A DNA stretch of 44,422 bases from Kagunavirus 536P11. The translations under genes and the position numbers were made by a program. Shown here in pieces: positions 26,672 to 41,677 of this stretch. Location: sequence record OZ035764.1. The stretch is one strand, 5' to 3'. The notes below the pieces were generated by a model. That model worked only from the letters and a program-made list of their open reading frames with translations, was not told the origin of the DNA and did not search any database. Every line of letters starts with the position of its first letter. The stretch's first letter is position 1.

Positions 26672-27617
26672 TTACCACCCCCATGAATGCCTTTATAAAT
26701 TCAGCGGCTACTTGCGGGATGATGGCATTGCCGTAACCGCGCAATCGTCCCACTCTGGCGGGTATCCCATTAGCCAGCGGGAATGTGCCGGGTTCAACTG
26801 GCCTGAATTTCCCATCCCGGCATCCGAGCCAGTCAGCATCTGACCAGAAGCTGTGGTGCGTATTGGCCGCGATATTTTCAGTCCCTGCTCCGTTGAGTAG
26901 TCCAGCCTGTCGAATGTTCTGTCTTTTCCGTCCTTGCGAATAACTGTCTCTCCGCTCCCTCTGTAATCGTTCGCTGTTGGGGTCGGCCATGCCAAAAGGT
27001 ATTGTGCGTGCGTCGCCAGATTGCAATTCGCATTCGGTCTGTTGAAGCGTTTTTCCGCGTAGGCTTGTGGGTCTTTCGCTCTGCTGTTGTTGTCGTCCGC
27101 AACCGCTGGCGTCGGCCAGGTTGTACGCGCCGAAGAACAGTCTGTCGCGTTTGTGCGGGGCACCGACGCTACAAGCTGGGAGTACGGCAAACCCGACGGA
27201 GTAGTCTTCTCCTTCCAGATGAGTTTGTAAATCGCACATCCACGATTTTGCAATTGCTGGTGCAACCTGTTCCCCAAAGAGGACTGGAGGGCGGCACTCG
27301 CTGATGAGGTCGAGGAAGACTGGCGCGAGGTGTCTCGGGTCAAACTGCCCGAGTTGCTTTCCTGCCGCGCTAAACGGTTGGCAAGGCGGGCTTCCCGTCC
27401 AGCAAGGCGTATCTTCCGAAACTCCCGCAAGTCTGAGCGCGAGAGGCCAGCCGCCGATACCAGCGAAAAAATGACACTGGGTGAACCCGTCAAGGTCTTC
27501 TGGCTTAACTTCGGTAATGCTTCTTTCATCTACAACTCCAAAAGGTATGTGACCCTGCTTTATTAATTCACGCAGCCACGCTGCCGCGCTTTTATCCCAT
27601 TCATTGTAGTAATTCAT
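26664..27617 (-). CDS. DNA (cytosine-5)-methyltransferase
   Basis: motif I FFAGIGG and motif IV GSPPCQPFSAAGK (catalytic PCQ). Confidence 0.8.
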   Translation of the reverse strand: MNYYNEWDKSAAAWLRELIKQGHIPFGVVDERSITEVKPEDLDGFTQCHFFAGIGGWPLALRLAGVSEDTPCWTGSPPCQPFSAAGKQLGQFDPRHLAPVFLDLISECRPPVLFGEQVAPAIAKSWMCDLQTHLEGEDYSVGFAVLPACSVGAPHKRDRLFFGAYNLADASGCGRQQQQSERPTSLRGKTLQQTECELQSGDARTIPFGMADPNSERLQRERRDSYSQGRKRQNIRQAGLLNGAGTENIAANTHHSFWSDADWLGCRDGKFRPVEPGTFPLANGIPARVGRLRGYGNAIIPQVAAEFIKAFMGVVNE

Positions 27618-27805
27618 TTCGCCACCAGAACTAACTCTTTACGCCCGAACGCCGTAACGTTACCGGTTACGTCTTCGATAACCAGTTTACCGTTCGACTC
27701 GACGAACACCGTATCAACGGCAACAGGACGACGGGTCTTAACGTTGAAAATCATGTCGCCCGGTACGATGTCACGTGCGGGTTTGCGGTCATATTCGTGT
27801 TTCAT
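27614..27805 (-). CDS. hypothetical protein
   Basis: 63 aa ORF downstream of internal promoter 27839-27867. Confidence 0.4.
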   Translation of the reverse strand: MKHEYDRKPARDIVPGDMIFNVKTRRPVAVDTVFVESNGKLVIEDVTGNVTAFGRKELVLVAK

Positions 27806-27835
27806 TTCTCAATTCCTTATATTGTTGGTGTAGGA

Positions 27836-28120
27836 CTAACTATAATAGTTCGCTATTAGGTCGTCAACCTGTTTAAACGAACCAACGACAAAAACATTTG
27901 CACCACGTTTACGCATCCGCTCATGCTCCCGTAACTGGTGCGGGTCAGGCTTCGTGTTCTCGTCTTTCTTCACCTCGACGAACCAGATGACGCCGCCGGG
28001 GAGAATTATCAGCAGGTCAGGAGCGCCCACTCTATTTTCGTACGACAATTTGCGTACAAGGCCCCCCAGGGCCTCGAATCGGTCTTTTGCGTATTTCTGA
28101 ATCTTGCCTTCCGGGGTCAT
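27836..28120 (-). CDS. VRR-NUC domain nuclease
   Basis: PD-(D/E)XK-like GAPDLL...VEVKK signature; ATG at 28120 (M6 of track ORF) overlaps stop of upstream micro-ORF. Confidence 0.6.
   Translation of the reverse strand: MTPEGKIQKYAKDRFEALGGLVRKLSYENRVGAPDLLIILPGGVIWFVEVKKDENTKPDPHQLREHERMRKRGANVFVVGSFKQVDDLIANYYS
27839..27867 (-). promoter_or_regulatory. early promoter with operator (minus strand TTGACG-17-TATAGT, core AATAG-N4-CTATT)
   Basis: plus strand TATAATAGTTCGCTATTAGG at 27841-27860; lies inside the 3' end of the VRR-NUC ORF. Confidence 0.5.
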
Positions 28121-28269
28121 GACCGCAGAACCCAAGTTATAAACGCCCCGCCGAGAACGGCAACGCCAACAAACTTAAAGAACAGGCCATAACAGAACAT
28201 CGCGGCTATCCCCGCACCGAGTAACAGTGCGAGCATGGTTACTATCGTCCAAAATACAAACATTGTCAT
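28117..28269 (-). CDS. small hydrophobic membrane protein (50 aa, not in ORF track)
   Basis: MTMFVFWTIVTMLALLLGAGIAAMFCYGLFFKFVGVAVLGGAFITWVLRS; ATGA overlaps at both ends. Confidence 0.4.
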   Translation of the reverse strand: MTMFVFWTIVTMLALLLGAGIAAMFCYGLFFKFVGVAVLGGAFITWVLRS

Positions 28270-28355
28270 AATACGCACCCCTCCCGTTTTGTATGCTCAA
28301 TGCCACAGCGCGGACAGATTCGGCAGTCTTCTTCGTAGAACCAGTAAATTTTCAT
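28266..28355 (-). CDS. micro-ORF, 29 aa CxxC peptide (not in ORF track)
   Basis: MKIYWFYEEDCRICPRCGIEHTKREGCVL; ATGA coupling to both neighbours. Confidence 0.3.
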   Translation of the reverse strand: MKIYWFYEEDCRICPRCGIEHTKREGCVL

Positions 28356-28504
28356 TCCAGCACCCACAGATAAATTGCGACTAACATACCCAATACGGCG
28401 ACTAACATACCCAATACGGCGACCATCATGCCGTATTGACCCTCGTGGCAGTAGACACCGGCGGTGAATCCCGCCAGTACTGCGATAATCAGTTTACTTA
28501 GCAT
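28352..28504 (-). CDS. small membrane protein with internal tandem repeat (50 aa, not in ORF track)
   Basis: RBS AGGAG 8 nt upstream; MLSKLIIAVLAGFTAGVYCHEGQYGMMVAVLGMLVAVLGMLVAIYLWVLE; overlaps 3' end of DNA polymerase gene. Confidence 0.4.
   Translation of the reverse strand: MLSKLIIAVLAGFTAGVYCHEGQYGMMVAVLGMLVAVLGMLVAIYLWVLE
28382..28423. repeat. perfect 21-bp tandem direct repeat x2 (TAACATACCCAATACGGCGAC)
   Basis: in-frame duplication giving VAVLGML twice in the small membrane ORF. Confidence 0.8.
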
Positions 28505-30695
28505 AGCGTTTTAACTCCTGCCCTTCCGCTACAAGAGGGAACCCCTCGGCCCACTCAGGCAGAGAACACATTAATTTTTCCAGTTCGGCCACCGTGTACT
28601 CAGGGGTATCTGGGGTTTCACATACCAGTTCATCGTGTACCGAAAGCACGATAGGATACCCGCCACGCTCAACGTTAATCATCGCATATGCCAGTAAATC
28701 ACGGCACAGCGCCTGGACAATGTTTTCACATGCTTTACCGCCGTGGGTGTATAGAGTTGTCCATTGGCGGGTTAACTGGTTTTCGCCCTGATACTTGATT
28801 CGGACATTCGTGTTTACCCGTCCATCTTCGTCTGTTTCCTTTGTCACACTAACGCCGATTCCCGGATACGAGAGGATACGGCCTGACGGCAACTCCATAC
28901 ACAACCACCAGCCAGGAACCTTCCTGCCCGACGAATCAAATTCTACGGTACGCCATATGCGGATAGCCCTTTCACCATTCCGGCGCAAGTGTGCCCCGGC
29001 CCAAAATTCACGACCAGGATTACGAACAGCGGCTAAAATTCCGTCTTTAAGGTCGCGCCAGAACGCTACTGTTTCCGGGTGTGACTCGCGCCACATACGC
29101 TTGATTGCATCACATGTGCGCCACACTTTCTTGTCCAGAATATATGATGGTCGGTCATCCTTTTCACCTGGATGCGGTGGTCGCTTGGCTTCCTGAATAC
29201 GCGCCCACTCATACCCACGTGCGGTAGCAGCCCAGATGTGGTCGGGGAAAGTCCCGTCCATTGTTTTTGCCATCTCAATAAGGTCAAGACCTAAGTTTTT
29301 AGCAAACGTAACGAACGCTCCGACGCCGCCCTCGTAGCCGAGACCCAGTTCGCATGCTTTGCCTATCTGTCTGATTTCCTTAAAGTTTTTCTTAATATCG
29401 TCGGGGTCCATGCCAAACATCTTACCTGCGGTTACACAGTAAATATCCAGTCCGGCACGGAACGTATCGAGCGCGGTTTCTTCTCCTGCTAACCACGCTA
29501 ACCCACGACCTTCGACGTTAGAGTAATCAGCTACGACAAACTTGTGCCCGGCTTCCGGTATGATGCAGCTACGGACCGTCGATGCCGTCAGCTTGGCTAC
29601 GTCAAATCGGCGGTGAGCACGACCCTTAAGTAACGCTGAAATGCCTTTATCCAGTTCATCATCGTGATAGTAACCGCGCGCCAGGTTCTGCGGCTGAAAG
29701 CCTTTACCCGCCCATCGCAGAGTGCGTTTTGCCCCGCCGTACTGCAAGCAACCACGACGGCGGTCGTCAGACGAGCGGCCCAACAGAAGCGGGTTATATT
29801 TCGTGGACGCTGTTGACGCGGCACCGAGGCGCATTTCGATAATCGTCCGGGCGTCGTCCGGTAAATCATCATCTGCCAACAGGTCGTTAAGCGTAGACTT
29901 CTGCGCGTTGTGAATACGGTGCGCAGGCGCAAGTTCACGCAGAATCGGCAGAAAGTCCTTACCCGTAAGCGAGCCTCCGTATTTGCGCTGGGCTTCTTCC
30001 TGTAACTGCGCTTTATGTTTCTCTACGGCATCAATAGCGGCTTCCGCCAGTGCGACGTCAACCTTAAACCCGCGGTCATTAATTAACTGGTCCAGTTCCA
30101 GTACGCGGTCCTCGAACTCGGAGTTACCCCAACGCGGCAGCTTATGGAAGACTTCACGCATCGCAGTGATGTCGCTCACGGCGTACTTGATGAACAGCGC
30201 CCACTCATCAGGGTGTGTTTCGGCGGTGTAGCGTCTGATTTTGTAGTTCTTCGGCGTCGGCTTAGAGAAACGCTGAATCAGCGCCTTGCCGCGTTTATCT
30301 TTCGCATTGTCAGCGGACACGCCCAGCACTTCGCACAACGCATCAAGTGACCCCGGCAGCGCGTGACGAAACGCCCAAATCATTGTATCAATGGTGTTGC
30401 TTACCGGAATATCAAAGTCCCAACAGTGCTTCATGATGAGCCTGTCGAACATTGATCCGTTGTGCCATACCATCTTAATGCGACTGTTTGGCTTAACCAG
30501 GCGGCGTAACGCACGATGCAAATCACCCGGCATGTCGCTGCCGTCGGTGCAATCCCACACCCGCACAGGCTCGTCGTCAAAAGCATAGGTACAGATAAGC
30601 ACTTCGGTTGACGGGTGTTCGGCGTAAGCGTAGGAACCGACTTTCTTTAAATCGGCTTCGGAGAATGTTTCAAAGTCCAGGTATAAGTAGCTCAT
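28494..30695 (-). CDS. DNA polymerase I-like (family A) with 3'-5' exonuclease domain
   Basis: exo motif LDFETF; pol motifs DYSNVEGR, RQIGKACELGLGYEGG, VHDELV; start at M19 (ATG 30695, RBS AAGGA) preferred over track start 30749. Confidence 0.8.
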   Translation of the reverse strand: MSYLYLDFETFSEADLKKVGSYAYAEHPSTEVLICTYAFDDEPVRVWDCTDGSDMPGDLHRALRRLVKPNSRIKMVWHNGSMFDRLIMKHCWDFDIPVSNTIDTMIWAFRHALPGSLDALCEVLGVSADNAKDKRGKALIQRFSKPTPKNYKIRRYTAETHPDEWALFIKYAVSDITAMREVFHKLPRWGNSEFEDRVLELDQLINDRGFKVDVALAEAAIDAVEKHKAQLQEEAQRKYGGSLTGKDFLPILRELAPAHRIHNAQKSTLNDLLADDDLPDDARTIIEMRLGAASTASTKYNPLLLGRSSDDRRRGCLQYGGAKRTLRWAGKGFQPQNLARGYYHDDELDKGISALLKGRAHRRFDVAKLTASTVRSCIIPEAGHKFVVADYSNVEGRGLAWLAGEETALDTFRAGLDIYCVTAGKMFGMDPDDIKKNFKEIRQIGKACELGLGYEGGVGAFVTFAKNLGLDLIEMAKTMDGTFPDHIWAATARGYEWARIQEAKRPPHPGEKDDRPSYILDKKVWRTCDAIKRMWRESHPETVAFWRDLKDGILAAVRNPGREFWAGAHLRRNGERAIRIWRTVEFDSSGRKVPGWWLCMELPSGRILSYPGIGVSVTKETDEDGRVNTNVRIKYQGENQLTRQWTTLYTHGGKACENIVQALCRDLLAYAMINVERGGYPIVLSVHDELVCETPDTPEYTVAELEKLMCSLPEWAEGFPLVAEGQELKRYAK

Positions 30696-30847
30696 TTCTT
30701 TTTCCTTAAATCCAGTGCCTTCGTTTCGCTTAATCGTATTTTCATACAATCACGGCAAATCCACACATGCCTGTACCCAGCCCGGTACTCATCTGCGTAC
30801 CAAGGAAGCGGTTTCATATAGCGGTATACGTGCTTACAGAAAATCAT
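30692..30847 (-). CDS. hypothetical small Cys-containing protein (51 aa, not in ORF track)
   Basis: stop TGA overlaps polymerase ATG (ATGA); MIFCKHVYRY...WICRDCMKIR; alternative is that the region is polymerase N-terminal extension. Confidence 0.3.
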   Translation of the reverse strand: MIFCKHVYRYMKPLPWYADEYRAGYRHVWICRDCMKIRLSETKALDLRKKK

Positions 30848-30861
30848 TATTTTGACCCTTA

Positions 30862-30886
30862 GTAAAAAGGCCCAATAAAGGGCCTT
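30862..30886 (-). terminator. terminator hairpin (AAGGCCC-AATAAA-GGGCCTT) with U-tract on minus strand
   Basis: directly after stop of 30906-31535 gene. Confidence 0.5.
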
Positions 30887-30905
30887 AATTAAACAGATTC
30901 AGATA

Positions 30906-31535
30906 TTAACCACGGCGGCGACGTTCGCGGCGCGGTGCTTCATCTTCTTCGTCGTCTTCCAGGTCATTGACACTGGCTGCAACTTTAGAACCGCCGAACG
31001 CTTTACCTTCGCCTACGTATTTAATTGCCAGCAGGTTAATACCGAGAACTTTGTACTTCTGGCTGAACCAGATTTCAACGCTTACGTTAGCGACGCAGCC
31101 GCTGTAAACCTGTTCACCTTCAATCTGCTCGCCGTCTACATTGAAGTCCTGCTCTACCTGAGTCTCGCCTTTTTTGGAGGTTACAATCAGTGGCTGTTTC
31201 TGAGCTTTCGCTTTGAAGTAGAAGCCTTCCGGGAAGTCTTCAAACGGATTGTCGCGCTCGGCAATGTCCTTAATAGCACATTTATCCATGTGCTTACCTT
31301 CGCCGTAGTTGGACTTCATCCATTTCTCGGCGGCGGCTGCACCTAACGCTTCTTCAACTACAGCGTAAACGGTGTCGTAGAGAGCGTCGATTTGAGCATG
31401 GTCAGACGGCAGGATAATAGTCGCGCTGTACTGGCCTTTAGTGATTGAGCCATCATCGTTTTCACGGTCTTTTTCGCGTTCAAATACGTTAACCCATGCA
31501 GTGTTTACTTTACGCAGATTTAATTTCAGTCCCAT
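30906..31535 (-). CDS. DUF2815-like protein (possible ssDNA-binding)
   Basis: 209 aa with acidic C-terminal tail; conserved neighbour of the nuclease and polymerase genes. Confidence 0.4.
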   Translation of the reverse strand: MGLKLNLRKVNTAWVNVFEREKDRENDDGSITKGQYSATIILPSDHAQIDALYDTVYAVVEEALGAAAAEKWMKSNYGEGKHMDKCAIKDIAERDNPFEDFPEGFYFKAKAQKQPLIVTSKKGETQVEQDFNVDGEQIEGEQVYSGCVANVSVEIWFSQKYKVLGINLLAIKYVGEGKAFGGSKVAASVNDLEDDEEDEAPRRERRRRG

Positions 31536-31588
31536 TTGATTTCTCGCTTTTCAGTTTACTCCGGGAAGCTGCCCGGCCAGTGATTAGA

Positions 31589-31617
31589 ACTATAATAGCT
31601 AACTATTCAGGTGTCAA
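31589..31617 (-). promoter_or_regulatory. early promoter with operator (minus strand TTGACA-17-TATAGT, core AATAG-N4-CTATT)
   Basis: plus strand TATAATAGCTAACTATTCAG at 31591-31610. Confidence 0.55.
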
Positions 31618-31621
31618 CACT

Positions 31622-32884
31622 TTATTCTAAATCTTCTTCACTAACCTGATTCCACTCAGGACGTTTGTCGTCTGCCGTTGCGACACATGGCGCACCGGGC
31701 TTACGGGTAATGAAGTCTTTCAGTTCTTCTTCCGGTATAACTTTAACGGCCTCGGTCGGCGTCATAAGCACTTCTTTAGTCAGCTTGTCGCCGTACTTCT
31801 CGAATACCGCATCGGAATCTTTCCACGCACGGTTGCCCATCTTACCCTCAACCAGCTTGTACCCCGGCACTTTCTTACCGGAATGCAACGCGGCAGCCAT
31901 AGCTTTCTCAACCTTGTCGATGTGTTGACGCAACAACGGCAACTTCTCATACTCGGTTACGAGTTGCTCTGGTGTCAGTTCCAGTGCAAAATCGTCCTCC
32001 AGTTCTTCCGCCAGTACAGAATTAACGGTTTTTGTACGTGCGGCACATTGTTCAGAGAACCGACACCACTGACAGCCATCGACCGACGGCTTGAAGTCCG
32101 ACGCTTTAAGGTTCTTTTTACCACGGAAATACGCATCTAATGCTAACAGTGCACGTTTCCGTGCGAACTTAGCGAACAGTTCCAGACCTTCAACCGAGAT
32201 GTCCCACTCCGACGCGCCCCCAGCGTACGGCTGGAAGATGACCAGACGAACAACTGTGATGTTATATCGTCTCTTGAGTCGGCGATAAACACCGAGAGCA
32301 TAAAGCATAAGCTGCTTGTTTTCTTTCGCTTCAACACGGTGCCGTCCTGTTTTAAGGTCTCCAATAATGAGCATGTGCTCGTCAGTGTTAGCCAGTTCCT
32401 GCACGGCAACAAGGTCAGCGGTCCCGAACGTCTCAACGCCTTCATATCCCGGATGCAGCACCTCTGTAAGATTGACGCGCATTTCCAGCTTAGCGTAAGT
32501 CGCCACGTCTATAATCGCCTTGCAGTAGTCGGTATACTTGCGCACCTGCTCAATCATGTCAGCCGTGATTAGTACAGCGCCTTTCATCGGACTAATTAGC
32601 GCCTTAATCTGGCCTTTACCCTCGTCCAGCACGTAAGCGCCGACTTCACGCTCTAGTGGCAGTGCATTGCCGCGGATATAGGCGTTGAGATGTACCTCAG
32701 CTATGGTGTGCATAGCCGTGCCTAATACCGCGGCTTTACCGGACGTGTTGGGGATATCTTTCTCACAGGCCAGTGATGCGGCGCAGCTTAGCCACTTTTT
32801 AGCCCCGGACGGCGATAGTAAAGCGTGTACGTCGTTATTGCCACCGCGTTCTTTTAGTTTCATGCTCTTAAACTCCCACCCCAT
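31622..32884 (-). CDS. PD-(D/E)XK nuclease (DUF2800 / Cas4-RecB-like) with C-terminal Cys cluster
   Basis: 420 aa; IGDLK...E.K nuclease-like core; C-terminal CQWCRFSEQC. Confidence 0.5.
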   Translation of the reverse strand: MGWEFKSMKLKERGGNNDVHALLSPSGAKKWLSCAASLACEKDIPNTSGKAAVLGTAMHTIAEVHLNAYIRGNALPLEREVGAYVLDEGKGQIKALISPMKGAVLITADMIEQVRKYTDYCKAIIDVATYAKLEMRVNLTEVLHPGYEGVETFGTADLVAVQELANTDEHMLIIGDLKTGRHRVEAKENKQLMLYALGVYRRLKRRYNITVVRLVIFQPYAGGASEWDISVEGLELFAKFARKRALLALDAYFRGKKNLKASDFKPSVDGCQWCRFSEQCAARTKTVNSVLAEELEDDFALELTPEQLVTEYEKLPLLRQHIDKVEKAMAAALHSGKKVPGYKLVEGKMGNRAWKDSDAVFEKYGDKLTKEVLMTPTEAVKVIPEEELKDFITRKPGAPCVATADDKRPEWNQVSEEDLE

Positions 32885-33058
32885 TTAACTTTACGCGTTT
32901 TGCGTTTATATGCGCACGTGTCGCCGCTACGGTTGAATATAATCAGCCAAGTCGAGTTGCTTACTCGAAAAGGCTGGTGGCGTTTAATAAAGAGAAGTCG
33001 CGCTTTACGGTTCGTCATTCTGTAAACTCCTAAATCCACGCGAAATCAGAATACATAA

Positions 33059-33337
33059 TTACAAACATGCTCTGTTCTCCCACTGGTCAATTAAATGCCG
33101 TGTCTTATGGTCGCAGTGCATAGCCCATCCATACATAGACTCGAAGACATAAAAGTCAGGTTTGGCGAAAGTCGTGCGCTTAATCTGCGACACGTGACGG
33201 CCAATATCTTTGGGCCTCGGTGCTTTCCCTAAGTACGCCATCTCGTCCATCTGGTGCGCACCGGACGGCGCACGTAATAGCCATAGCGCCTCTGCGTTAT
33301 CCCGCCTGTCAACGGCGCGGTAGAGTTGGTAAATCAT
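33059..33337 (-). CDS. hypothetical protein
   Basis: 92 aa ORF. Confidence 0.4.
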   Translation of the reverse strand: MIYQLYRAVDRRDNAEALWLLRAPSGAHQMDEMAYLGKAPRPKDIGRHVSQIKRTTFAKPDFYVFESMYGWAMHCDHKTRHLIDQWENRACL

Positions 33338-33380
33338 AATTCCGACCCTCAGTTAAAGCGGCCCGAAGGCCGCGGGATAG

Positions 33381-33833
33381 TTATTCTTCTTCGAAATACT
33401 TGTTCTTGATTGCCGTCAGGCGTTCCAGGTACTCGGCCAGGTCTTCGTCTTTAATCGCAGCAATCTTCATCTTCTTACCCGTGAACTCCTCCAGCAGTTC
33501 ATCAGAATCGTCGCACGCGGCGTCGCTCGGGCCTTCGTTAATCGCATCGTCGATAGCCTGAATCTGGTCACGAAGAGACTGATAATCGACTTCTTCTTCC
33601 GGCTCTGGCGTAGGTTCCTCTACTTTAGCTTTACGCGGTTTGCGTTTCGGCTTCTCTTCTTCCGCCGGTTTAGTGTCAACGAGGTCTTCACCTTCAACCG
33701 GGATTTCTTTTGTTGCAACAGTAGGTGTGATTGTTGCAGTTTCAGCAACGACAACTTGTTTCACACTGTTCGTGGCAATTAGTTCATGCGCAACTACGAA
33801 ACGTTCCAGTAATACTAAGAATTTCTCTAACAT
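33381..33833 (-). CDS. acidic hypothetical protein
   Basis: 150 aa, D/E-rich with central basic patch; RBS GAGGAG; first gene after promoter 33865-33893. Confidence 0.45.
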   Translation of the reverse strand: MLEKFLVLLERFVVAHELIATNSVKQVVVAETATITPTVATKEIPVEGEDLVDTKPAEEEKPKRKPRKAKVEEPTPEPEEEVDYQSLRDQIQAIDDAINEGPSDAACDDSDELLEEFTGKKMKIAAIKDEDLAEYLERLTAIKNKYFEEE

Positions 33834-33864
33834 TTGTTTCTCTCCTCTCGTTTGGCATGGGCTA

Positions 33865-33893
33865 AATATAATAGCTAACTATTCACATGTCAA
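33865..33893 (-). promoter_or_regulatory. early promoter with operator (minus strand TTGACA-17-TATATT, core AATAG-N4-CTATT)
   Basis: plus strand TATAATAGCTAACTATTCAC at 33867-33886; divergent from 33913-33930. Confidence 0.6.
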
Positions 33894-33912
33894 TGGGCTT
33901 TTCTAAAATAAT

Positions 33913-33930
33913 TAATATGGTACTATTCAC
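33913..33930 (+). promoter_or_regulatory. operator-bearing extended -10 promoter (TGgTACTAT)
   Basis: TAATATGGTACTATTCAC about 30 nt upstream of the XRE-like gene start. Confidence 0.45.
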
Positions 33931-33957
33931 ATATCAACTAACTAAGGAGTAACTGAC

Positions 33958-34173
33958 ATGCAACCATCTGAGCTAGGCATCCGTGTAGAACAACGCCGTA
34001 AAGAACTCGGCATATCCCAGCGCCGTCTGGCTGTTCTGGCTGGCGTTTCCCAGGGCGCGATTAACCAGCTGGCACTCGGAGTAACTCAGGACGTCCGCCC
34101 GGCAACGCTGTTTAAACTGGCGGAAGTGCTGCAAGTAGACGCTAAGTGGCTGGCGTTCGGTGAAGGGGCTTAA
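33958..34173 (+). CDS. XRE/Cro-like helix-turn-helix transcriptional regulator
   Basis: 71 aa; HTH ISQRRLAVLAGVSQGAINQL; plus-strand gene inside minus-strand module, flanked by operators. Confidence 0.75.
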   Translation: MQPSELGIRVEQRRKELGISQRRLAVLAGVSQGAINQLALGVTQDVRPATLFKLAEVLQVDAKWLAFGEGA

Positions 34174-34190
34174 CGCCCCTTTCTTTTTAC

Positions 34191-36500
34191 CTACTCCAAA
34201 TCCTCCTCTGTCACTGTCAACATTTCATTCGGTTCGTATATTGTCTTCGGAATCTTGTTATCCGTTATTCGGGTGTTAAGCCTGTAACGGCCTGGGATTA
34301 TCTGGTTGTTTTCGTCAGTCCCAGGCACAAGATACCCGGCCTCAACCATTTTCTTAATCTTCCCGCGTTCTATGGCTTCTTTGGAGTTAAACGCCTTCGC
34401 GTTGGGGTCGGACTGTGCGAGTTTATTCGCGGCAGCTACCGTGATACCTTCGTTGCCGTTGTAGGTTCCTTCCGCCAGTTCAAACGCCGCCAGTATCGTG
34501 GCCTCTGAACTGTTGACGGCGTTCTCTACGGTTTTACGTACGTTTTCTTTACCTCCCTTTGTCAGCCCTTCTTCCCGCTCTTTCTCCTCGTCGGTCTTGA
34601 ATGGCTCGAAACCCCACGGCATCAATACAAGCGCCTTATGCGGTTCCGGCAGGTCGAGGTTTACTATTGTGCCGTATTCCTCTGTGCTACCGAGGAACTC
34701 AACAGCGCGGTACTCTTTCGGCGGCGGAGCTTCGCGGAACTGTACAGACTCGAGCACCATACCAACCGTCTTCTGTTGAGGGCCATGCTTAAATTTCGAG
34801 TGGTATACGTTTATCTGGCGGTCGGTTGCACGTTCAATTGTCAGTTCCACGTCGACGCCCGCATACAGCGCCCCACTACCACGGGCTTTCTTTCCGCCCT
34901 TCGGGGTATGATGGACAACGCCCACCGCAGCTTTAGTCGCGTCACGTACTTCTTTCAGGATGGCGATAACTTTACCCATGCCGATTGCCGTCGATGAACT
35001 GTTCTCGTCGAACTTATCAATCGTCAGCGCCAACGTCTGGTTAAGGGTATCGAACGCAACCATGCCAATTGGCTCGTCGCCAGCAGTTTCACGCATCAGC
35101 TTAATCAGGCTTTTCAGTTTGCCGACTTCACCCATATCGATAACGTGGATGTAGTTCTTCCCCTCCTCGCCATATTTAGCCGCGAGTGCGTCGATACGTG
35201 TGCATGTAGCTGCGCCACCCTCACCGTCGATATAGAAATGGTGGCAACGCTGGGTATCGGCCCCCGCAAACCGGTATCCAGCGGCGCTCAGGTACATCAT
35301 CCCCAGCGTATAGAAGGATTTGTACGTGCCGGATTCCCCAACAATATCCCATATGCAATCCGAGGGCATGTACCCCTCAACGACGAAATCAGCCTTTACC
35401 GGTTCCGGTAACTCGTCCTCCTCTGAGTCCTCGTCGTCTTCCAGGTCATCGAGGCTGCATTCGACCGTCTCACGCGCGCCCCAGCCGATGGCCTCAGCGA
35501 CTTCACTGAACGGTAGACCGGTCGCCTCGCAGGCATATTTCCATACCTCTTTCGGCGACATACCCTCTGTTGCCGTCAGGTCGGTGTCGTGAATCATGGT
35601 TACGTTAGGCGCGGCGTAACCCTCTCGCGGAAAGCACAGCAGGAAATCATCCGGGCGCGGTGTCGGGTCGCTGTAGTTCTCGGCGTGCTCAGGCGTCGCG
35701 GGCATCTTCAGGCCGCGCGGTGTGATGACACCACCATACTCGAACGCCAGCGCTTCGAAGGCGTCCGTAAACGCGGTGCGCAGTTCTTCCGGTATCTGGT
35801 AGTCCGATGCGCTGCTTACCTCGTAATCCGGGATGCCTTCCAGCAGGCGGTCAGGGTCTATCAGGTCATTGCGGCGCGACCAGACGACCTCAGAGTTAAC
35901 CGGCGGCAGGTACATCGGCTGAGACAGGGTGAACCCGCTGCGGTCTGCGCCCATGCCTTTAAAGAAATGCTCCAGCAGACCGTGACGGACGCGGATGATA
36001 TCACCGCCTTCTACCGGGCGCGCCAGCGGCATGACGACACGGAAACGCGGCGATTCGTCGGTGTGCGATGCCGTGGTGTAAATGCACATGGCTTTACGAC
36101 TGCGCTTAACCAGGCGCACAGCTTCCTGATACTCTTCCGGCGTCGCACTGTCGAAGTCCAGATAAGCGAGCGACGATTTGCTTACAGACGCGTCGCAGCG
36201 ATAGAAGAAGCCTTTACGCGCCTGCTTAAAGTCACTGGTTTCCGGGTCTTTTACGGTGCTGTGCGTTGAGTCACACGCCGCGGTGATATAACCGGGAGCG
36301 GTCTTCGGGTTAACCCCATCGCGAACGGCATCGAGTGGCTGAATTAGCTCTTTCAGGTCGTCCAGTGTTGCCGTGTGGGTTGTTCTGACGTTTATATCCT
36401 TTTTCTCTGCCCGCGCGTTGCGACGAGACCACGAGTAGGATAAAATTACATCGGACATGTTGTATATTCCTTCAGCAAGTAATTTAGCCTCGGCGTTCAC
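34191..36500 (-). CDS. DNA primase / helicase (P-loop NTPase domain)
   Basis: 769 aa; Walker A-like GESGTYKS; largest gene of the replication module. Confidence 0.55.
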   Translation of the reverse strand: MNAEAKLLAEGIYNMSDVILSYSWSRRNARAEKKDINVRTTHTATLDDLKELIQPLDAVRDGVNPKTAPGYITAACDSTHSTVKDPETSDFKQARKGFFYRCDASVSKSSLAYLDFDSATPEEYQEAVRLVKRSRKAMCIYTTASHTDESPRFRVVMPLARPVEGGDIIRVRHGLLEHFFKGMGADRSGFTLSQPMYLPPVNSEVVWSRRNDLIDPDRLLEGIPDYEVSSASDYQIPEELRTAFTDAFEALAFEYGGVITPRGLKMPATPEHAENYSDPTPRPDDFLLCFPREGYAAPNVTMIHDTDLTATEGMSPKEVWKYACEATGLPFSEVAEAIGWGARETVECSLDDLEDDEDSEEDELPEPVKADFVVEGYMPSDCIWDIVGESGTYKSFYTLGMMYLSAAGYRFAGADTQRCHHFYIDGEGGAATCTRIDALAAKYGEEGKNYIHVIDMGEVGKLKSLIKLMRETAGDEPIGMVAFDTLNQTLALTIDKFDENSSSTAIGMGKVIAILKEVRDATKAAVGVVHHTPKGGKKARGSGALYAGVDVELTIERATDRQINVYHSKFKHGPQQKTVGMVLESVQFREAPPPKEYRAVEFLGSTEEYGTIVNLDLPEPHKALVLMPWGFEPFKTDEEKEREEGLTKGGKENVRKTVENAVNSSEATILAAFELAEGTYNGNEGITVAAANKLAQSDPNAKAFNSKEAIERGKIKKMVEAGYLVPGTDENNQIIPGRYRLNTRITDNKIPKTIYEPNEMLTVTEEDLE

Positions 36501-36516
36501 GCGTCGGGGCTTTCTT

Positions 36517-36807
36517 TTATCTTTTGGCCAGACATTCCATCAAATGCGCGTACTTACGGTAATAATCTACGACAATCTCATCGCCGAAATACTGATAAAT
36601 GTACGCTAAGTGGTCAGAGACACCGATGGAGGCCGACATTGTGCTGAGTCTTCGGAGACTAATCAACTGCAATTCTTCTGTAACGCAAAACGGTGAATAA
36701 GAGTCCAGCTTACAAGAAACGTTAAAGCACAACGCGTACTCGCCTTGCGCTAAATAAACCATATAAGCATTGTCGTTCTCTTTATCGTGGAAAATTACAC
36801 CTTTCAT
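36517..36807 (-). CDS. hypothetical protein
   Basis: 96 aa ORF. Confidence 0.4.
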   Translation of the reverse strand: MKGVIFHDKENDNAYMVYLAQGEYALCFNVSCKLDSYSPFCVTEELQLISLRRLSTMSASIGVSDHLAYIYQYFGDEIVVDYYRKYAHLMECLAKR

Positions 36808-36974
36808 TTCACGTTCTCCTTAATCCACGCTTCAACTTTATTACGGTCAAATGTTCCCGGTAAACGGCGGCCCATTACTTTAACGCTGCAATCAGGAAAC
36901 TTTCCACTCTTAATCCAGTTATTAATCGTCTGGCGGGTGACGCCAATTAATTCTGCGACTTCATTGATAGTCAT
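36804..36974 (-). CDS. small HTH DNA-binding protein (AlpA/excisionase-like fold)
   Basis: MTINEVAELIGVTRQTINNWIKSGKFP; RBS AGGAGA; track start 37064 would place the upstream inverted repeat inside the coding region. Confidence 0.55.
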   Translation of the reverse strand: MTINEVAELIGVTRQTINNWIKSGKFPDCSVKVMGRRLPGTFDRNKVEAWIKENVK

Positions 36975-37014
36975 TTCACGCTCTCCTGTGTAAGATGTAT
37001 CGAAGTATAAGGCG

Positions 37015-37054
37015 GTAACTTTGTAAAAGCAACCAAAACCGAACACAAAGTTAC
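37015..37054. promoter_or_regulatory. 10-bp perfect inverted repeat GTAACTTTGT-N20-ACAAAGTTAC (putative operator)
   Basis: upstream of the minus-strand HTH gene and next to the divergent promoter at 37080. Confidence 0.45.
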
Positions 37055-37079
37055 TAAGATACAAAAGATGCTACTGGTA

Positions 37080-37108
37080 TTGACTTTTACTTAAAAATAT
37101 GCTAAGCT
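37080..37108 (+). promoter_or_regulatory. sigma70-like promoter TTGACT-17-TGcTAAGCT (extended -10)
   Basis: same architecture as 5134-5162. Confidence 0.5.
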
Positions 37109-37111
37109 TCA

Positions 37112-37349
37112 CTGAGCTTGTGAGATATCGCAAGCGACCGCGGAGCGGCAGGGAACGCAACGCGTGCCATTAGGCACTTGAGTGTAGTTCCGCTGGCGCT
37201 TTCGGAAGGGCCAAAGTCTATTGTTAATCCCGCCTAAATACCCAAGCCACTGATAATTAAAAGTTTCTATAGTTGCCGCAAGCAAGGTAGAGAGTACTTC
37301 ACTCCGCTGGGGTGGGCTAACGCCCACCCACTGCGTTGCGTACTCTTTT
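37112..37349 (+). ncRNA. candidate structured small RNA, copy B (boundaries approximate)
   Basis: shares three sequence blocks with copy A; hairpins GCTTG/CAAGC and GUGCC-AUUA-GGCAC (compensatory to copy A); terminal hairpin GGTGGGC/GCCCACC; no ORF conserved between copies. Confidence 0.4.
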
Positions 37350-37388
37350 AAGAAACGAAAGAATCACAACGGCATCGTAACTATTCTC

Positions 37389-37421
37389 TTGCACACCCCA
37401 ATATAATAGGATACTATTCAC
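37389..37421 (+). promoter_or_regulatory. early promoter with operator (TTGCAC-17-TACTAT, core AATAG-N4-CTATT)
   Basis: CACCCCAATATAATAGGATACTATTCACTTA, 29/31 identical to the minus-strand promoter at 14651-14682. Confidence 0.6.
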
Positions 37422-37451
37422 TTATCGGAACGAGACAGAGGAGTGAGGGTT

Positions 37452-37643
37452 ATGTTTAAGAAGGGTCAGTTGGCGAAAACGAAACGCGGCGGACAATATG
37501 TATTAGTGATACAGGACGAGAATAAGTATGACGAGGATAATCTTGTCGACGTATGGGGTCTGGTGAGAAAGAAAAACGGGTTCGCCTTTCGCGATAACCT
37601 GGAATTAATCGGCAACAATTTTAAATTCAAAGGGGCGAAGTGA
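37452..37643 (+). CDS. hypothetical small protein
   Basis: ATG 37452 with RBS GGAGTGAGGG; stop overlaps next start (TGATG). Confidence 0.5.
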   Translation: MFKKGQLAKTKRGGQYVLVIQDENKYDEDNLVDVWGLVRKKNGFAFRDNLELIGNNFKFKGAK

Positions 37644-37834
37644 TGGAAGAATTAATTTACGACGTATACGTCGACGGGGTTATCTCAGAGACGACAAGTA
37701 ATAAAGATTACGCAATAAAGTTGTATGTGTATTATGCCGCAGTGTTAGGAAGGATGGTAGAAGTGCGGGAGCGAACGGCATCGAATCATGAGGCGAAGAT
37801 ATACACAACGGCATCGGATAAAGAGGCGAAGTGA
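37643..37834 (+). CDS. hypothetical small protein with C-terminal RTASNHEAK motif
   Basis: coupled TGATG junctions at both ends; contains 22-nt repeat GAACGGCATCGAATCATGAGGC. Confidence 0.5.
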   Translation: MEELIYDVYVDGVISETTSNKDYAIKLYVYYAAVLGRMVEVRERTASNHEAKIYTTASDKEAK

Positions 37835-38037
37835 TGCAAGAATTATTTGAAGAACTGAAACATCATGAACTAGAAGAAGTGCATTTCATAATTGACCATT
37901 ACAAAGTCACTTTATTAGACGGTACAACCATTTCTTCAGGGGCAAGTGACGATTTGTTGAAATTTTTACTTTTACTACGAACGGCATCGAATCATGAGGC
38001 TCGTGCCGACGACTCTGAGGGAGGTTGCCGTGAATAA
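37834..38037 (+). CDS. hypothetical small protein with C-terminal RTASNHEAR motif
   Basis: second copy of the 22-nt repeat at 37979-38000. Confidence 0.5.
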   Translation: MQELFEELKHHELEEVHFIIDHYKVTLLDGTTISSGASDDLLKFLLLLRTASNHEARADDSEGGCRE

Positions 38038-38097
38038 TTACCCGTTCATTTTAATTGTCAGCGCCGTTTATGTGGTGCACGCGTTGTGGGGGTTGGT

Positions 38098-38298
38098 ATG
38101 AGTGTGTGGATTAAGTGTAGCGAGCAGGTTCCGTGCAGCGAGCCTGGCCGATGGTCAAAAGATGTTATCGCGCTAAGTGATACTGGGGATGTGTTTCGTC
38201 TGGCCTGTCAAGGTGAATACTGGCAAAGAACGTCAGCGTTTGTCGAATCCGGTTCCGAAAAAGTGGTTGCATGGGCGCCGTTACCCGAGGAGGACTAA
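38098..38298 (+). CDS. DUF551-like protein
   Basis: MSVWIKCSEQ...AWAPLPE; paralogous to 38449-38640. Confidence 0.55.
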   Translation: MSVWIKCSEQVPCSEPGRWSKDVIALSDTGDVFRLACQGEYWQRTSAFVESGSEKVVAWAPLPEED

Positions 38299-38301
38299 GT
38301 T

Positions 38302-38445
38302 ATGAGAGAAGCATTCGAACGGTGGGCCGTAGTCGAGGGTCTGCCGGTTAACAAGGGTTCGAAGAAAGAGTACCTGAACGTTAAGACGCGTCTCGCGTGG
38401 CGGGCGTGGAAAGCTGGTGTGCTGTTTATCGCGAATCAGAGGTGA
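38302..38445 (+). CDS. hypothetical small protein (47 aa, not in ORF track)
   Basis: RBS GAGGAGGA before ATG 38302; fills gap between the two DUF551-like genes. Confidence 0.4.
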   Translation: MREAFERWAVVEGLPVNKGSKKEYLNVKTRLAWRAWKAGVLFIANQR

Positions 38446-38448
38446 TTT

Positions 38449-38640
38449 ATGGGTGAGTGGATTAAGTGTAGTGAGCGGATGCCGGAAAAGCTTGATGATG
38501 TGCTGGTTACTGATGGCGAGCATGTCGAGGTTAAATGGTGGAACGGTAATATTTGGGGTTGTTGGTCACCGCGTAACTCAGATATTGGTTACAAAGATGT
38601 AACTCACTGGATGCCGTTACCGCAGCCGCCAGAATTGTGA
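38449..38640 (+). CDS. DUF551-like protein
   Basis: MGEWIKCSERMPEK...HWMPLPQPP. Confidence 0.55.
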   Translation: MGEWIKCSERMPEKLDDVLVTDGEHVEVKWWNGNIWGCWSPRNSDIGYKDVTHWMPLPQPPEL

Positions 38641-38682
38641 TGTTATATTGTAACAATAGTTTGAGATTTTACTGAGTGACTT

Positions 38683-38720
38683 ACGCTGCTACACAGCAGC
38701 GTATCATTTTTCTCATTTTT
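38683..38720 (+). terminator. intrinsic terminator (ACGCTGCT-ACAC-AGCAGCGT then T-rich tract)
   Basis: after DUF551-like gene stop. Confidence 0.6.
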
Positions 38721-38797
38721 GTTCTATTTCACGAAACGCAACAATCGAAGCGACTATTGCAGGAGATGCAACAATACACAACACCAATAAAATTTAC

Positions 38798-38830
38798 TTG
38801 CACACTAGGATAGAATAGGCTACTATTCAT
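38798..38830 (+). promoter_or_regulatory. early promoter with operator (TTGCAC-17-TACTAT, core AATAG-N4-CTATT)
   Basis: TTGCAC 38798-38803, TACTAT 38821-38826. Confidence 0.55.
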
Positions 38831-38857
38831 TTACACAAACGAGGGGGAGAGATAGAG

Positions 38858-38989
38858 ATGAAATACGAAATTTTAGACGTATTTGGATTAGCAAAGATTT
38901 ATGCGACACTCGGCTGGGTTATTGTTTGTGATGGGGACACAAAACGCGCCCACACTGAGGGTATTGAGGTGCAAGAAGATGAACAATAA
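38858..38989 (+). CDS. hypothetical small protein (43 aa, not in ORF track)
   Basis: RBS GAGGGGGAGAG before ATG 38858. Confidence 0.4.
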   Translation: MKYEILDVFGLAKIYATLGWVIVCDGDTKRAHTEGIEVQEDEQ

Positions 38990-39320
38990 AAACGAAGTAT
39001 TCGAGTACCTGATTGACCAGCTACGGCAGCAGGTAAATAACGACCAGTGCGAAGACCTGGCGCACGAGGTGTTGTCACTTAAGAATCAGTTACGTGATAC
39101 GTCGGAGCTGGTGGATGAGCTACTTGGGACAATAACGCTAATGAACGGGGATACGGTTGCCGTAAGGGAAATGCCCGCGAGTGCTGCCATAACTGGCGAT
39201 TCGTTAATGGCAAGGCTCCCGCCGTATGTATTAATTGCGGCGTGGCTAAATCCGGAGAGTGCAAACACGAGTGGGAGTATTATTACCCAAACGGCAGGCG
39301 TTGTACCAAATGCGGGGTGA
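38979..39320 (+). CDS. hypothetical protein; 3' part may continue in the -1 frame (Cys-rich, ending 39331)
   Basis: ATG 38979 with RBS GAGGTG; alternate frame 39119-39331 encodes a Cys-rich zinc-ribbon-like segment whose stop overlaps the next ATG. Confidence 0.4.
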   Translation: MNNKNEVFEYLIDQLRQQVNNDQCEDLAHEVLSLKNQLRDTSELVDELLGTITLMNGDTVAVREMPASAAITGDSLMARLPPYVLIAAWLNPESANTSGSIITQTAGVVPNAG

Positions 39321-39327
39321 TAAACTT

Positions 39328-39531
39328 ATGACCAGCATTCTTTTTATCTGGGTACTGTCCGCGGGCCAGATGCAACTCGCGGCATCAGAAACGTTTTACT
39401 CGATGGAGGCGTGCCAGTCGGCGGCACGCGCCGCAGAGAACGCGCACTTCCTGTTCCAGAGCGACAAGCCAAATGATTCAGAGGTACGCGCTATTTGCTC
39501 ACCTAAGCGACTTGGTAAACAGGAGAAGTGA
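39328..39531 (+). CDS. small secreted/membrane-like protein
   Basis: hydrophobic N-terminus MTSILFIWVLSA; ATG 39328 preferred over track start 39259. Confidence 0.45.
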   Translation: MTSILFIWVLSAGQMQLAASETFYSMEACQSAARAAENAHFLFQSDKPNDSEVRAICSPKRLGKQEK

Positions 39532-39533
39532 TT

Positions 39534-39800
39534 ATGGTACAGAGATATGAGTTATCGGAAAAATGGGGCCAGCCAGAGATGGCGAAGTATGACTACGGCG
39601 ACTATGTAGAGTACAACAGCTATAAGGAACTGGACGACTATTACCAGGAACGCATCGCCGATGCCAACGAGGAAATAGAGGTTCTCGTCGCAAGACTGGC
39701 GGAAGTAAACGCCGAGTTACAGAAATACAAAGACCAGTTCCCGGATTACGTCGAGTGTGCGAACTGTGGGTCAATTACACATGTGGAAGGGTTGGAGTAA
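39534..39800 (+). CDS. hypothetical protein
   Basis: ATG 39534 with RBS AGGAG preferred over track start 39528. Confidence 0.45.
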   Translation: MVQRYELSEKWGQPEMAKYDYGDYVEYNSYKELDDYYQERIADANEEIEVLVARLAEVNAELQKYKDQFPDYVECANCGSITHVEGLE

Positions 39801-40105
39801 TGATTGATGTGTATATCTATTGGAGCGGGATAGTTTTTAATTTTACCATTATCCCCGTGATTCTTTGGGTGCTTTGGTGTTTGGTACTGTTCCCCGCCGT
39901 AGAAGCCGTCAGCATGGCGCGGTACTACAGAAGAATCGGGAAAGTGCACGGGGTTAAAGTGCACAACTGGTTCAGGCTATTCCTCGCTAACTATGAGTTG
40001 TTCGGGCGCACATTCACGGCACAGCGGTGCTCTTACGGCTACTGGGAAGGGGTAGGGCAATGGGAAGTATTTCCTGCGGAGGCTGAAAATGAGCCTTGCA
40101 ACTGA
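39800..40105 (+). CDS. membrane protein
   Basis: hydrophobic N-terminal helix FNFTIIPVILWVLWCLVLFPA; ATG overlaps previous stop. Confidence 0.45.
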   Translation: MIDVYIYWSGIVFNFTIIPVILWVLWCLVLFPAVEAVSMARYYRRIGKVHGVKVHNWFRLFLANYELFGRTFTAQRCSYGYWEGVGQWEVFPAEAENEPCN

Positions 40106-40382
40106 CATCCTGAAACGAAGCGGCCTTGCGCCGCTGTCACCGAGAGCTAGAACACAGATATACAAGCGCCGCCATAACGCGCTGTACCCCGAGATTCAGG
40201 CCAGACGCAAAGCGGTCCGCGCCTGTGGATTCCAGAACGGGAAGGCCGTTAACCTCGGTGAGTTTAAAACACAGGAACGGGCAGCTATTGCGAACCGGCT
40301 ATTTAATTACTGGAAATCGCTGGGATACGATGATATTCCGACGAAACCACAGAGGCGACAATACATCTGGAGACATAAATAA
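40089..40382 (+). CDS. hypothetical basic protein
   Basis: 97 aa ORF with RBS GGAGG. Confidence 0.45.
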   Translation: MSLATDILKRSGLAPLSPRARTQIYKRRHNALYPEIQARRKAVRACGFQNGKAVNLGEFKTQERAAIANRLFNYWKSLGYDDIPTKPQRRQYIWRHK

Positions 40383-40457
40383 ACCGTTATTAGGATAATT
40401 CCTACCCGTGGTATCCTCCAGTTACTGCATACTTAATACGCACCTGGAGGATTCATC

Positions 40458-41497: not shown

Positions 41498-41563
41498 CAC
41501 CTAAGACTAATCCGACGATACTTAAATCACCTCCTGTTCCATCCCTCTGCTCTCCAGTTTTAT

Positions 41564-41594: not shown

Positions 41595-41614
41595 TCTATT
41601 TCTGCAATGACTAG

Positions 41615-41643: not shown

Positions 41644-41677
41644 TACTCCATCGACAACGAGAACGGGGTAGAGAGAA

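Follow-up and report, generated by a model that had tools for sequence, protein, structure and literature searches.

Sequence record OZ035764.1 (Kagunavirus 536P11; 44,422 nucleotides, all of which were analysed and are referred to here as the window) carries, at promoters on both strands, repeated copies of a 14-bp palindrome, AATAG-N4-CTATT. Two of these copies, termed O1 and O2, lie in a divergent intergenic region directly upstream of a gene at 33958-34173 that encodes a small protein of the XRE family. Here we consider whether the palindrome is the operator of a repressor, and which protein might bind it.

Results

The Genome and Its Layout

An 8-kb stretch of the window (28494-36500) matched 458 phage records, the best being E. 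coli Kagunavirus genomes at about 90% identity, e.g., vB_EcoS_fFiEco02 (fFiEco02). Gene order is common to the window and to fFiEco02, which has 77 annotated genes. In this type of layout, packaging and structural genes on the plus strand are followed by a leftward replication block (helicase, polymerase, single-stranded DNA (ssDNA)-binding protein and nuclease). After this block come a lone rightward gene annotated as "transcriptional repressor", a leftward primase-helicase operon, and then rightward operons of small genes and lysis genes. The annotation of fFiEco02, at 90% identity, contains no RNA polymerase, integrase, CI or cII. With this gene order, and with no integrase or CI annotated in the relative that shares it, the window is essentially the complete genome of a virulent phage of the Guernseyvirinae.

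A Palindrome Recurring at Non-Coding Sites

Exact copies of AATAG-N4-CTATT start at 14653, 27844, 31594, 33870 (O1), 37405 and 38814, and a copy with one mismatch (AATATGGTACTATT; O2) starts at 33914. These are the seven sites listed in a preliminary description of this DNA, and all of them are present. However, the total is at least eight, because an additional one-mismatch copy (ACTAGTTGACTATT) lies at 41610-41623, over the -35 hexamer of a TTGACT-17-TATATT promoter, an arrangement that is kept in relatives. Allowing up to one mismatch, the window contains 11 matches, compared with 1.24 ± 0.99 expected, and none of 100 dinucleotide shuffles reached 11. The sequence is the commonest 5-N-5 palindrome in the window, with terminator stems coming second, and its extended form is TATAATAG-N4-CTATTCAC. 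The recurrence is therefore confirmed and statistically solid. One further match with a single mismatch, at 2805, has no convincing promoter nearby.

All of the copies are intergenic except that at 27844, which overlaps the final codons of an open reading frame (ORF; 27836-28135), in agreement with the intergenic or gene-end location initially proposed. In fFiEco02, which was annotated independently and is 7.3% non-coding, 11 of the 12 matches at up to one mismatch were wholly non-coding, the twelfth being in the last codons of a gene. The idea that two copies stand back to back around the XRE gene had to be dropped, since those at 33870 and 33914 are both upstream of it, as tandem direct repeats 44 bp apart. 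An Rfam search returned no family overlapping the palindromes.

Promoters That Carry the Palindrome

Each copy is framed by σ70-like hexamers, i.e., a TTGACA-like -35 and a TATAAT-like -10, with a spacer of 17 bp. The preliminary description of σ70-like promoters with a common palindrome over their core elements on either strand is supported. The orientation of each promoter was taken from the genes downstream, and two classes were evident. In class A (TTGC(A/G)C-17-TACTAT, on both strands), the right half-site overlaps the -10. In class B (TTGAC(A/G)-17-TATAGT or TATATT, in all three cases on the minus strand), the palindrome occupies the spacer and touches the -10, its left flank being the -10 hexamer itself. 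The three class B promoters were among the top scorers (10-11 of 12 matches) in a promoter scan of 25000-44422. The over-long spacer of 19-20 bp holding a palindrome, as in MerR-type promoters, was not found, the spacers all being 17 bp. The features are as follows.

14653-14666, minus strand: candidate operator AATAGTACGCTATT, class A; -35 TTGCGC at 14682-14677, -10 TACTAT at 14659-14654
14432-14623 and 13263-14393, minus strand: accessory cassette behind the 14653 promoter (superinfection immunity gene and metallophosphoesterase-like gene, respectively, with small ORFs)
27844-27857, minus strand: candidate operator AATAGTTCGCTATT in a class B spacer; -35 TTGACG at 27867-27862, -10 TATAGT at 27844-27839
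27614-27805, 26664-27617 and 25247-26671, minus strand: genes downstream of the 27844 promoter, the second a C5-methylase ORF and the third an SNF2 helicase
31594-31607, minus strand: candidate operator AATAGCTAACTATT in a class B spacer; -35 TTGACA at 31617-31612, -10 TATAGT at 31594-31589
30906-31535 and 28494-30749, minus strand: ssDNA-binding protein and DNA polymerase, downstream of the 31594 promoter
33870-33883, minus strand: O1, candidate operator AATAGCTAACTATT in the (class B) spacer of a leftward promoter, PL; -35 TTGACA at 33893-33888, -10 TATATT at 33870-33865
33381-33833 through 31622-32884, minus strand: genes predicted to be driven by PL, ending with a PD-(D/E)XK nuclease
33914-33927, plus strand: O2, weaker candidate operator AATATGGTACTATT, 44 bp from O1; contains an extended -10, TGgTACTAT (33918-33926), for a rightward XRE promoter
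33882 (TTCACA) -16- 33904 (TAAAAT), plus strand: alternative XRE promoter, whose start would fall within O2
33958-34173, plus strand: candidate repressor gene, 71 amino acids, HTH_3, 434-Cro-like, monocistronic, then a terminator at 34162-34182
37405-37418, plus strand: candidate operator AATAGGATACTATT, class A; -35 TTGCAC at 37389-37394, -10 TACTAT at 37412-37417; predicted to drive a small-gene operon, 37443-38640
38814-38827, plus strand: candidate operator AATAGGCTACTATT, class A; -35 TTGCAC at 38798-38803, -10 TACTAT at 38821-38826
Operon behind the 38814 promoter, plus strand: extends to the lysis genes (lysozyme, 40958-41497)
41610-41623, plus strand: eighth operator-like copy ACTAGTTGACTATT, one mismatch, centred on the -35 of TTGACT (41615) -17- TATATT (41638)
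Genes behind the 41610 promoter, plus strand: small genes leading into the terminase and structural module

The class A promoter at 14653 stands ahead of 14432-14623 and 13263-14393, which bears out the earlier suggestion that the accessory cassette within the tail module is under the same promoter type. The description of the set as an "early" regulon fits the replication genes but is too narrow, because the palindrome is also at the promoter before the small-gene block leading into the packaging genes.

After most of these promoters, a similar leader, (C)AACGAGA(G)GAG, occurs just before the start codon (33834-33860, 37425-37452, 38835-38857 and 41650-41677); it is a shared module of 5' untranslated region and ribosome-binding site that travels with the promoter cassette. 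A second observation concerns the opposite strand at 14653, where the Rfam int-alpA RNA (RF02996) was matched at 14701-14765 on the plus strand (36.6 bits; gathering threshold 35.8), between the palindrome and the tail-assembly-chaperone gene. This match is preceded by a plus-strand extended -10, TGtTAGAAT (at about 14689-14697), directly adjoining the class A promoter of the minus strand. The centre of the 14653 palindrome would be near -44 of the corresponding plus-strand start, and a protein bound there could affect both promoters.

Conservation and Variation across the Guernseyvirinae

The preliminary description had made its case depend on conservation of the motif at equivalent positions in related phages. 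It is conserved there: orthologous promoters of Kagunavirus fFiEco02 and Jerseyvirus SE2 carry the same motif. The strict AATAG-N4-CTATT was not found in Cornellvirus FSL SP-031 or in St162. A relaxed form, TAWTAS-N4-STAWTA, had eight matches in FSL SP-031 (1.0 expected), all of them intergenic and located at the corresponding promoters as well as ahead of the XRE gene; for comparison, there were eight in SE2 (1.5 expected) and six in the window (1.1 expected).

For a wider survey, an XRE alignment was used to retrieve 80 loci from IMG/VR, which were considered as groups K (Kagunavirus), J (Jerseyvirus), C, D and E (Cornellvirus-like) and F. The Cornellvirus-like groups carry related variants, A[AT]TA[GC] or AATAC, at the same promoters. 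The half-site in group D is AATA[GCT], and in group E (contig L065) it is AATAC-N4-GTATT, a symmetric change in both half-sites. An XRE homologue was found in all motif-bearing groups sampled, and paired candidate operators lie upstream of its gene in every one of them (K, J, C, D and E). O2 of Jerseyvirus and of groups C-E overlaps the -10 and has an ordinary -35 (TTGCGT or similar) ahead of it. The motif-bearing phages all have hosts in the Enterobacteriaceae.

Copies also occur with genes that are confined to single lineages. In fFiEco02, extra copies lie upstream of a lineage-specific sliding-clamp gene (5591) and a GIY-YIG gene (19578), and phage fBC-Eco01 has two identical extra copies. 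The presence of near-identical class A cassettes on such accessory genes suggests that promoter and palindrome form a portable module.

Register and Sequence Drift of the Palindrome

With +1 set 7 nt past the -10, the palindrome spans -19 to -6 in class A, -25 to -12 in class B and -40 to -27 at 41610, and -2 to +12 of the alternative XRE promoter, TTCACA-16-TAAAAT. Its asymmetric flanks (TAT-AATAG ... CTATT-CAC) face opposite ways relative to transcription in classes A and B. An element intrinsic to the promoter would hold one register, so that the occurrence of four registers over core elements argues for a separate protein-binding module. The four positions are classic repressor positions.

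The pattern of drift is consistent with this. In a position-anchored alignment of 36 distinct Kagunavirus XRE-upstream regions, the half-sites of O1 were invariant, whereas its central N4 varied (CTAA, CGAA, TGAA, CAAA, CGAG or CTAG) and a 1-nt indel adjoined it. Half-sites that stay fixed while the center drifts fit a repressor operator better than a promoter element. This alignment was used in place of an information-content logo made from motif-selected sites, which was discarded as circular. The distance between the paired sites ahead of the XRE gene is 44 (K), 55 (J), 64 (C/D) or 65 bp (E), i.e., 4.2, 5.2, 6.1 and 6.2 helical turns. They thus seem to stay in helical phase, an argument that is suggestive only, because it comes from just three independent distances.

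We also considered that there might be no dedicated repressor, and that the palindrome arose from descent or exchange of promoter cassettes combined with the near-symmetry of an AT-rich -10, making it a mere by-product, or else a hot-spot of recombination for mosaic exchange. Within a class, the copies are indeed paralogous well past the palindrome (those at 14647-14683 and 37388-37424 are 92% complementary over 37 nt, and those at 31588 and 33864 are 80% alike over 44 nt). The identity of the left flank with the -10 hexamer in class B and the association of extra copies with lineage-specific accessory genes would also be explained, and the entire XRE-upstream region is highly conserved in Kagunavirus, which limits footprinting by alignment. 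However, the 14-20 bp shared by classes A and B are opposite in orientation and register between the two, and at 41610 they lie over the -35. The spacer of σ70 promoters is normally unconstrained in sequence. The invariant half-sites around a drifting N4, the symmetric changes in group E, and the helical phasing at three distances are further points that exchange of cassettes would not predict. We therefore regard this explanation as unlikely; the palindrome is probably the operator of some phage-encoded repressor, as far as comparison of sequences can tell.

The XRE Protein as Candidate Repressor

The 71-residue XRE protein matched Pfam HTH_3 (E = 1.2e-12; 48 bits, cut-off 23) and a PHROG annotated as "transcriptional repressor". 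Its best sequence match in the PDB was 434 Cro, which is also 71 amino acids long (E = 4.9e-7). An AlphaFold2 model with five helices (predicted local distance difference test (pLDDT) score, 79) also had 434 Cro (2cro) as its best match, with template modelling (TM) scores of 0.73/0.79 and 40% identity, followed by 434 repressor, HipB, SinR, restriction-modification (R-M) controller (C) proteins and P22 c2. The 434 Cro dimer binds 14-bp palindromic operators, which agree in length and symmetry with the present motif.

In Kagunavirus, the single deviation of O2 (AATAT-GG-TACTATT) creates the extended -10 TGgTACTAT, so that the XRE promoter would lie wholly inside O2; with its gene behind two copies, autoregulation is plausible. 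Among 20 small proteins of FSL SP-031 there was no other clear helix-turn-helix (HTH) protein, and a weak NinH-like match there was found in the window also. Since an XRE homologue is present in every group, while a second HTH protein of the window, of the HTH_17 family (see below), is missing from several, the XRE protein is the only recognisable sequence-specific regulator common to the motif-bearing groups. On balance, we favour it as the most likely protein to bind, and repress from, AATAG-N4-CTATT.

Several observations weigh against this assignment. The XRE proteins of Kagunavirus and Jerseyvirus are 51% identical overall, i.e., less than the HTH_17 proteins of these genera (65-79%), and they have different recognition helices (SQGAINQ and SQSLITH) with the same core motif. 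The Jerseyvirus helix looks nearer to that of Cornellvirus (TQSAISH), whose motif differs. As K and J share a motif despite differing helices, there is no clean code relating helix to half-site. The closest XRE homologue outside the Guernseyvirinae was Cro of a lambdoid Klebsiella phage (45% identity), where the operators are ACAAG/CTTGT-like and unrelated; homology is thus no guide to the site. In group F, contigs L088 and L094 retain an XRE homologue, with one good palindrome at most. Because the AT-rich half-sites overlap -10-like sequence, part of their conservation represents promoter constraint. Finally, in published Kagunavirus RNA sequencing data, the time classes are too coarse and the gene identities too uncertain for promoters to be assigned.

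Specificities vary from group to group (K, J and C-F), but attempts to derive a residue-to-base code between recognition helix and half-site gave no clean rule and were abandoned. A word-indexed protein search with the XRE protein returned only relatives of at least 77% identity, with an identical recognition helix and no covariation signal. Distant homologues at 12 loci in bacterial genomes comprised one Jerseyvirus contaminant, the remainder having unrelated palindromes upstream. A 19-kb Taishania pollutisoli scaffold (NZ_JACVEL010000022.1) carries a Jerseyvirus-type XRE gene and upstream region nearly identical to those of Salmonella phage SE2, and is probably phage contamination of a bacterial assembly.

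The HTH_17 Protein as Rival Candidate

The window encodes a second candidate regulator, in the operon of the primase.

36804-36974, minus strand: rival regulator, a 56-amino acid HTH_17 (excisionase/AlpA-like) protein; promoter TTGCTT (37032-37027) -17- TATACT (37009-37004)

The promoter of this operon is without an AATAG palindrome, and so is its Jerseyvirus equivalent (TTGATT-17-TATACT). It could therefore be imagined that the HTH_17 protein is made early from an operator-free promoter and then acts on the operator promoters, setting the timing from early to middle transcription. In line with this, the protein was found in Kagunavirus and Jerseyvirus, which both have the strict motif, and in no other phage group of the database (442 records), being absent from FSL SP-031 and St162, which both lack that motif. 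Its conservation between the two genera, given above, is also in its favor, and an HTH gene was reported as "early" in phage K1B4, although equating that gene with HTH_17 is an inference from gene order.

However, the HTH_17 protein does not occur wherever the palindromes do. Groups C, D and E have related palindromes at the same promoters and no HTH_17 protein detectable by tblastn, and it is absent from a Kagunavirus contig (IMGVR_UViG_3300045988_014597; L043) that keeps six exact palindromes in 20 kb. Within Kagunavirus its identity ranges from 49-95%, while the motif and the XRE protein are constant. Its nearest solved relative was a monomeric mycobacteriophage excisionase (E = 0.08), and no dimerisation module that would suit a perfect 5-N4-5 palindrome is evident in this 56-amino acid protein of the HTH_17 family. 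As a binder it is thus disfavoured, and the timing scheme outlined above seems to us a long shot.

The HTH_17 position in contig L043 (12559-13144) is occupied by two unrelated ORFs, of 149 amino acids (no Pfam or PHROG match) and 47 amino acids (CxxC-rich, no Pfam match), a replacement that provides a natural case for testing the role of HTH_17. We also noted a 10-bp inverted repeat, GTAACTTTGT (37015) and ACAAAGTTAC (37045), that brackets the -35 of the HTH_17 promoter (37004-37054, minus strand). It was rejected as an operator for HTH_17, being present only in the closest relatives.

Host Factors, and Prior Reports of the Repeat

A host enterobacterial DNA-binding protein, e.g., a TrpR-like factor, might recognise the palindrome and be exploited by the phage. 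The TrpR operator, ACTAG-N4-CTAGT, differs from AATAG-N4-CTATT by one base per half-site; the copy at 41610 and a copy at 15716 in SE2 each have one TrpR-like half-site, and the hosts, as already stated, are all Enterobacteriaceae. Nevertheless, Cornellvirus-like phages of the same hosts use other half-sites, where a host factor would predict one motif, and in each group the paired sites are placed exactly ahead of the HTH gene that the phage itself encodes. We consider this explanation very improbable.

The repeat has been published already, under different and in one case wrong labels. In VB_EcoS-Golestan, the same 20-mers were given as promoters found by PHIRE, including TAATAGCGAACTATTCACAT and TAATATGGTACTATTCACAT "before ORF48", i.e., before the XRE gene (PMC7203180, Table S4). 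In fBC-Eco01 they appear as PP1-PP7, with the consensus tgAATAGTa-ccTATTat-T and the label "Phage RNAP promoter", where RNAP denotes RNA polymerase (PMC9825357, Table S2). Each report lists seven copies per genome, at the same genome positions, and neither mentions a palindrome, two promoter classes, σ70 hexamers or a repressor. That a phage-encoded RNA polymerase uses the 20-mers as promoters is scarcely credible, as PHIRE detects only repeated 20-mers, no such polymerase is among the 77 annotated fFiEco02 genes, no ORF large enough is left unassigned in the window (its largest ORFs match by position the fFiEco02 tail proteins, DNA polymerase and primase-helicase, the last two confirmed by Pfam), and a σ70-type -35/17/-10 frame surrounds every copy. 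The label is thus unsupported, and a recurring annotation error, "phage RNAP promoters" in phages lacking an RNA polymerase, can be corrected.

Other Elements in the Window

Two paralogous non-coding elements of about 230 nt (5134-5365 and 37080-37345, both plus strand) are 78% identical, and each follows a promoter-like TTGACT-17-TAAGCT site. A long helix, supported by 2-3 compensatory pairs, is predicted for both; a terminator (5343-5362) closes the first, and neither matched an Rfam family. Possibly they are two related small RNAs of the phage, and an ORF overlapping the second (37109-37327) is probably spurious. An HNH endonuclease ORF (12314-12940, minus strand) lies between inverted copies of a terminator hairpin (12285-12313 and 12821-12849; 93% complementary), a third copy being at 24901-24934; it looks like a mobile homing endonuclease inserted between bidirectional terminators. 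The ORF at 26664-27617 (minus strand), in the operon of the 27844 promoter, has a C-5 cytosine DNA methylase domain (E = 1.5e-16), and fFiEco02 has no such gene at this position. Finally, at 28377-28418, in a region of small ORFs downstream of the DNA polymerase gene, a 21-nt unit (GCGACTAACATACCCAATACG) occurs twice in exact tandem.

Discussion

The palindrome, its statistics, its embedding in σ70-like promoters and its conservation and variation between genera are direct observations, as are the identity and distribution of the candidate proteins. From these we infer the following scheme, including what it says of binding, repression, dimer stoichiometry, transcription starts and timing. On infection, host RNA polymerase would begin at all of the σ70 promoters bearing the palindrome. 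The Cro-like XRE protein would build up from its own promoter, embedded in the weaker operator O2 and beside the strong O1 of the divergent replication-gene promoter. Dimers of the protein would then occupy the operators and block RNA polymerase, lowering transcription of the replication and recombination operons (27844, 31594 and 33870) and of the small-gene and lysis operons (37405 and 38814), and likewise from the pre-packaging promoter (41610), of the tail-module accessory cassette (14653), and of the XRE gene itself. This would be negative feedback in the style of Cro, with no CI, lysogeny module or lysogenic alternative, and the primase/HTH_17 operon would escape it. Accessory genes inserted on the opposite strand in the structural module would bring or acquire a promoter-operator cassette and so join the same control.

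A broader version can be put forward tentatively, as it is rather less probable than the assignment of the XRE protein itself. Throughout the subfamily, which is strictly virulent, a lone Cro-like autorepressor without a CI partner might govern nearly every host-type promoter via one operator, whose specificity would have diverged between genera (AATAG, AATAC, A[AT]TA[GC]). As a portable unit, promoter and operator would recruit accessory genes into the loop, i.e., those for superinfection immunity, the sliding clamp and the GIY-YIG nuclease. At some sites, the bound dimer might also act on an abutting promoter of the opposite strand, e.g., that before the int-alpA-like RNA and tail genes (14690-14765).

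Kagunaviruses and Jerseyviruses rank with the phages isolated most frequently for therapy and food safety, and are coming into use as small chassis for phage engineering. If the scheme is correct, one repressor and a 14-bp operator would provide an obvious means of tuning engineered payloads or of insulating them. The "transcriptional repressor" gene, a concern in safety assessment, would then be a feedback regulator of the lytic cycle, and not a lysogeny gene.

Comparison with Known Systems

The kind of system proposed is classical. In the openly searchable literature we found no repressor-operator system described for the Guernseyvirinae, subscription-journal papers on Jersey-like phages being outside the scope of that search. 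Like C proteins such as C.AhdI and C.BclI, the XRE protein is a small HTH_3 protein of similar fold, with two adjacent palindromic sites upstream of its own gene and, we propose, dimeric and autoregulatory. Unlike them, it has no adjacent R-M pair, and its putative regulon spans many operons. Being monocistronic and having a terminator to itself, the XRE gene does not show the arrangement of an R-M controller; the sole methylase ORF (26664-27617) lies at a distance of 6 kb and is absent from fFiEco02, a relative that keeps the circuit.

The modelled protein belongs to the same five-helix fold class as P22 c2/Cro, SinR and HipB. Operators of the P22 c2/Cro type and of the XRE family have 5-N4-5-like geometry, with the outer bases contacted and the center not. 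However, sequence identity with these proteins is lower than with 434 Cro, and SinR and HipB control host operons or toxin-antitoxin loci.

The window shows features of a Cro/CI-type circuit, namely an HTH_3 domain, a 14-bp palindrome (such operators measure about 14-18 bp) over core promoter elements, and a regulator gene beside its own candidate operators. A lambdoid CI-Cro switch was not found: the divergent neighbour of XRE (33381-33833) matched no Pfam family and only a PHROG of unknown function, while a true lambdoid relative (L005) carries CI-Cro-cII. The nearest parallel is 434 Cro, with which the system shares a 71-residue regulator and its fold, a 14-bp palindrome over σ70 core elements, and two sites in a divergent region beside the regulator gene. 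It differs in its half-site (AATAG here, ACAA in 434) and in having, in a virulent phage, no CI partner, tripartite OR, integrase or lysogeny module. It differs also in reach: whereas the operators of 434 are confined to OR and OL, those proposed here are scattered along the genome at eight promoters or more, one of them within the structural module.

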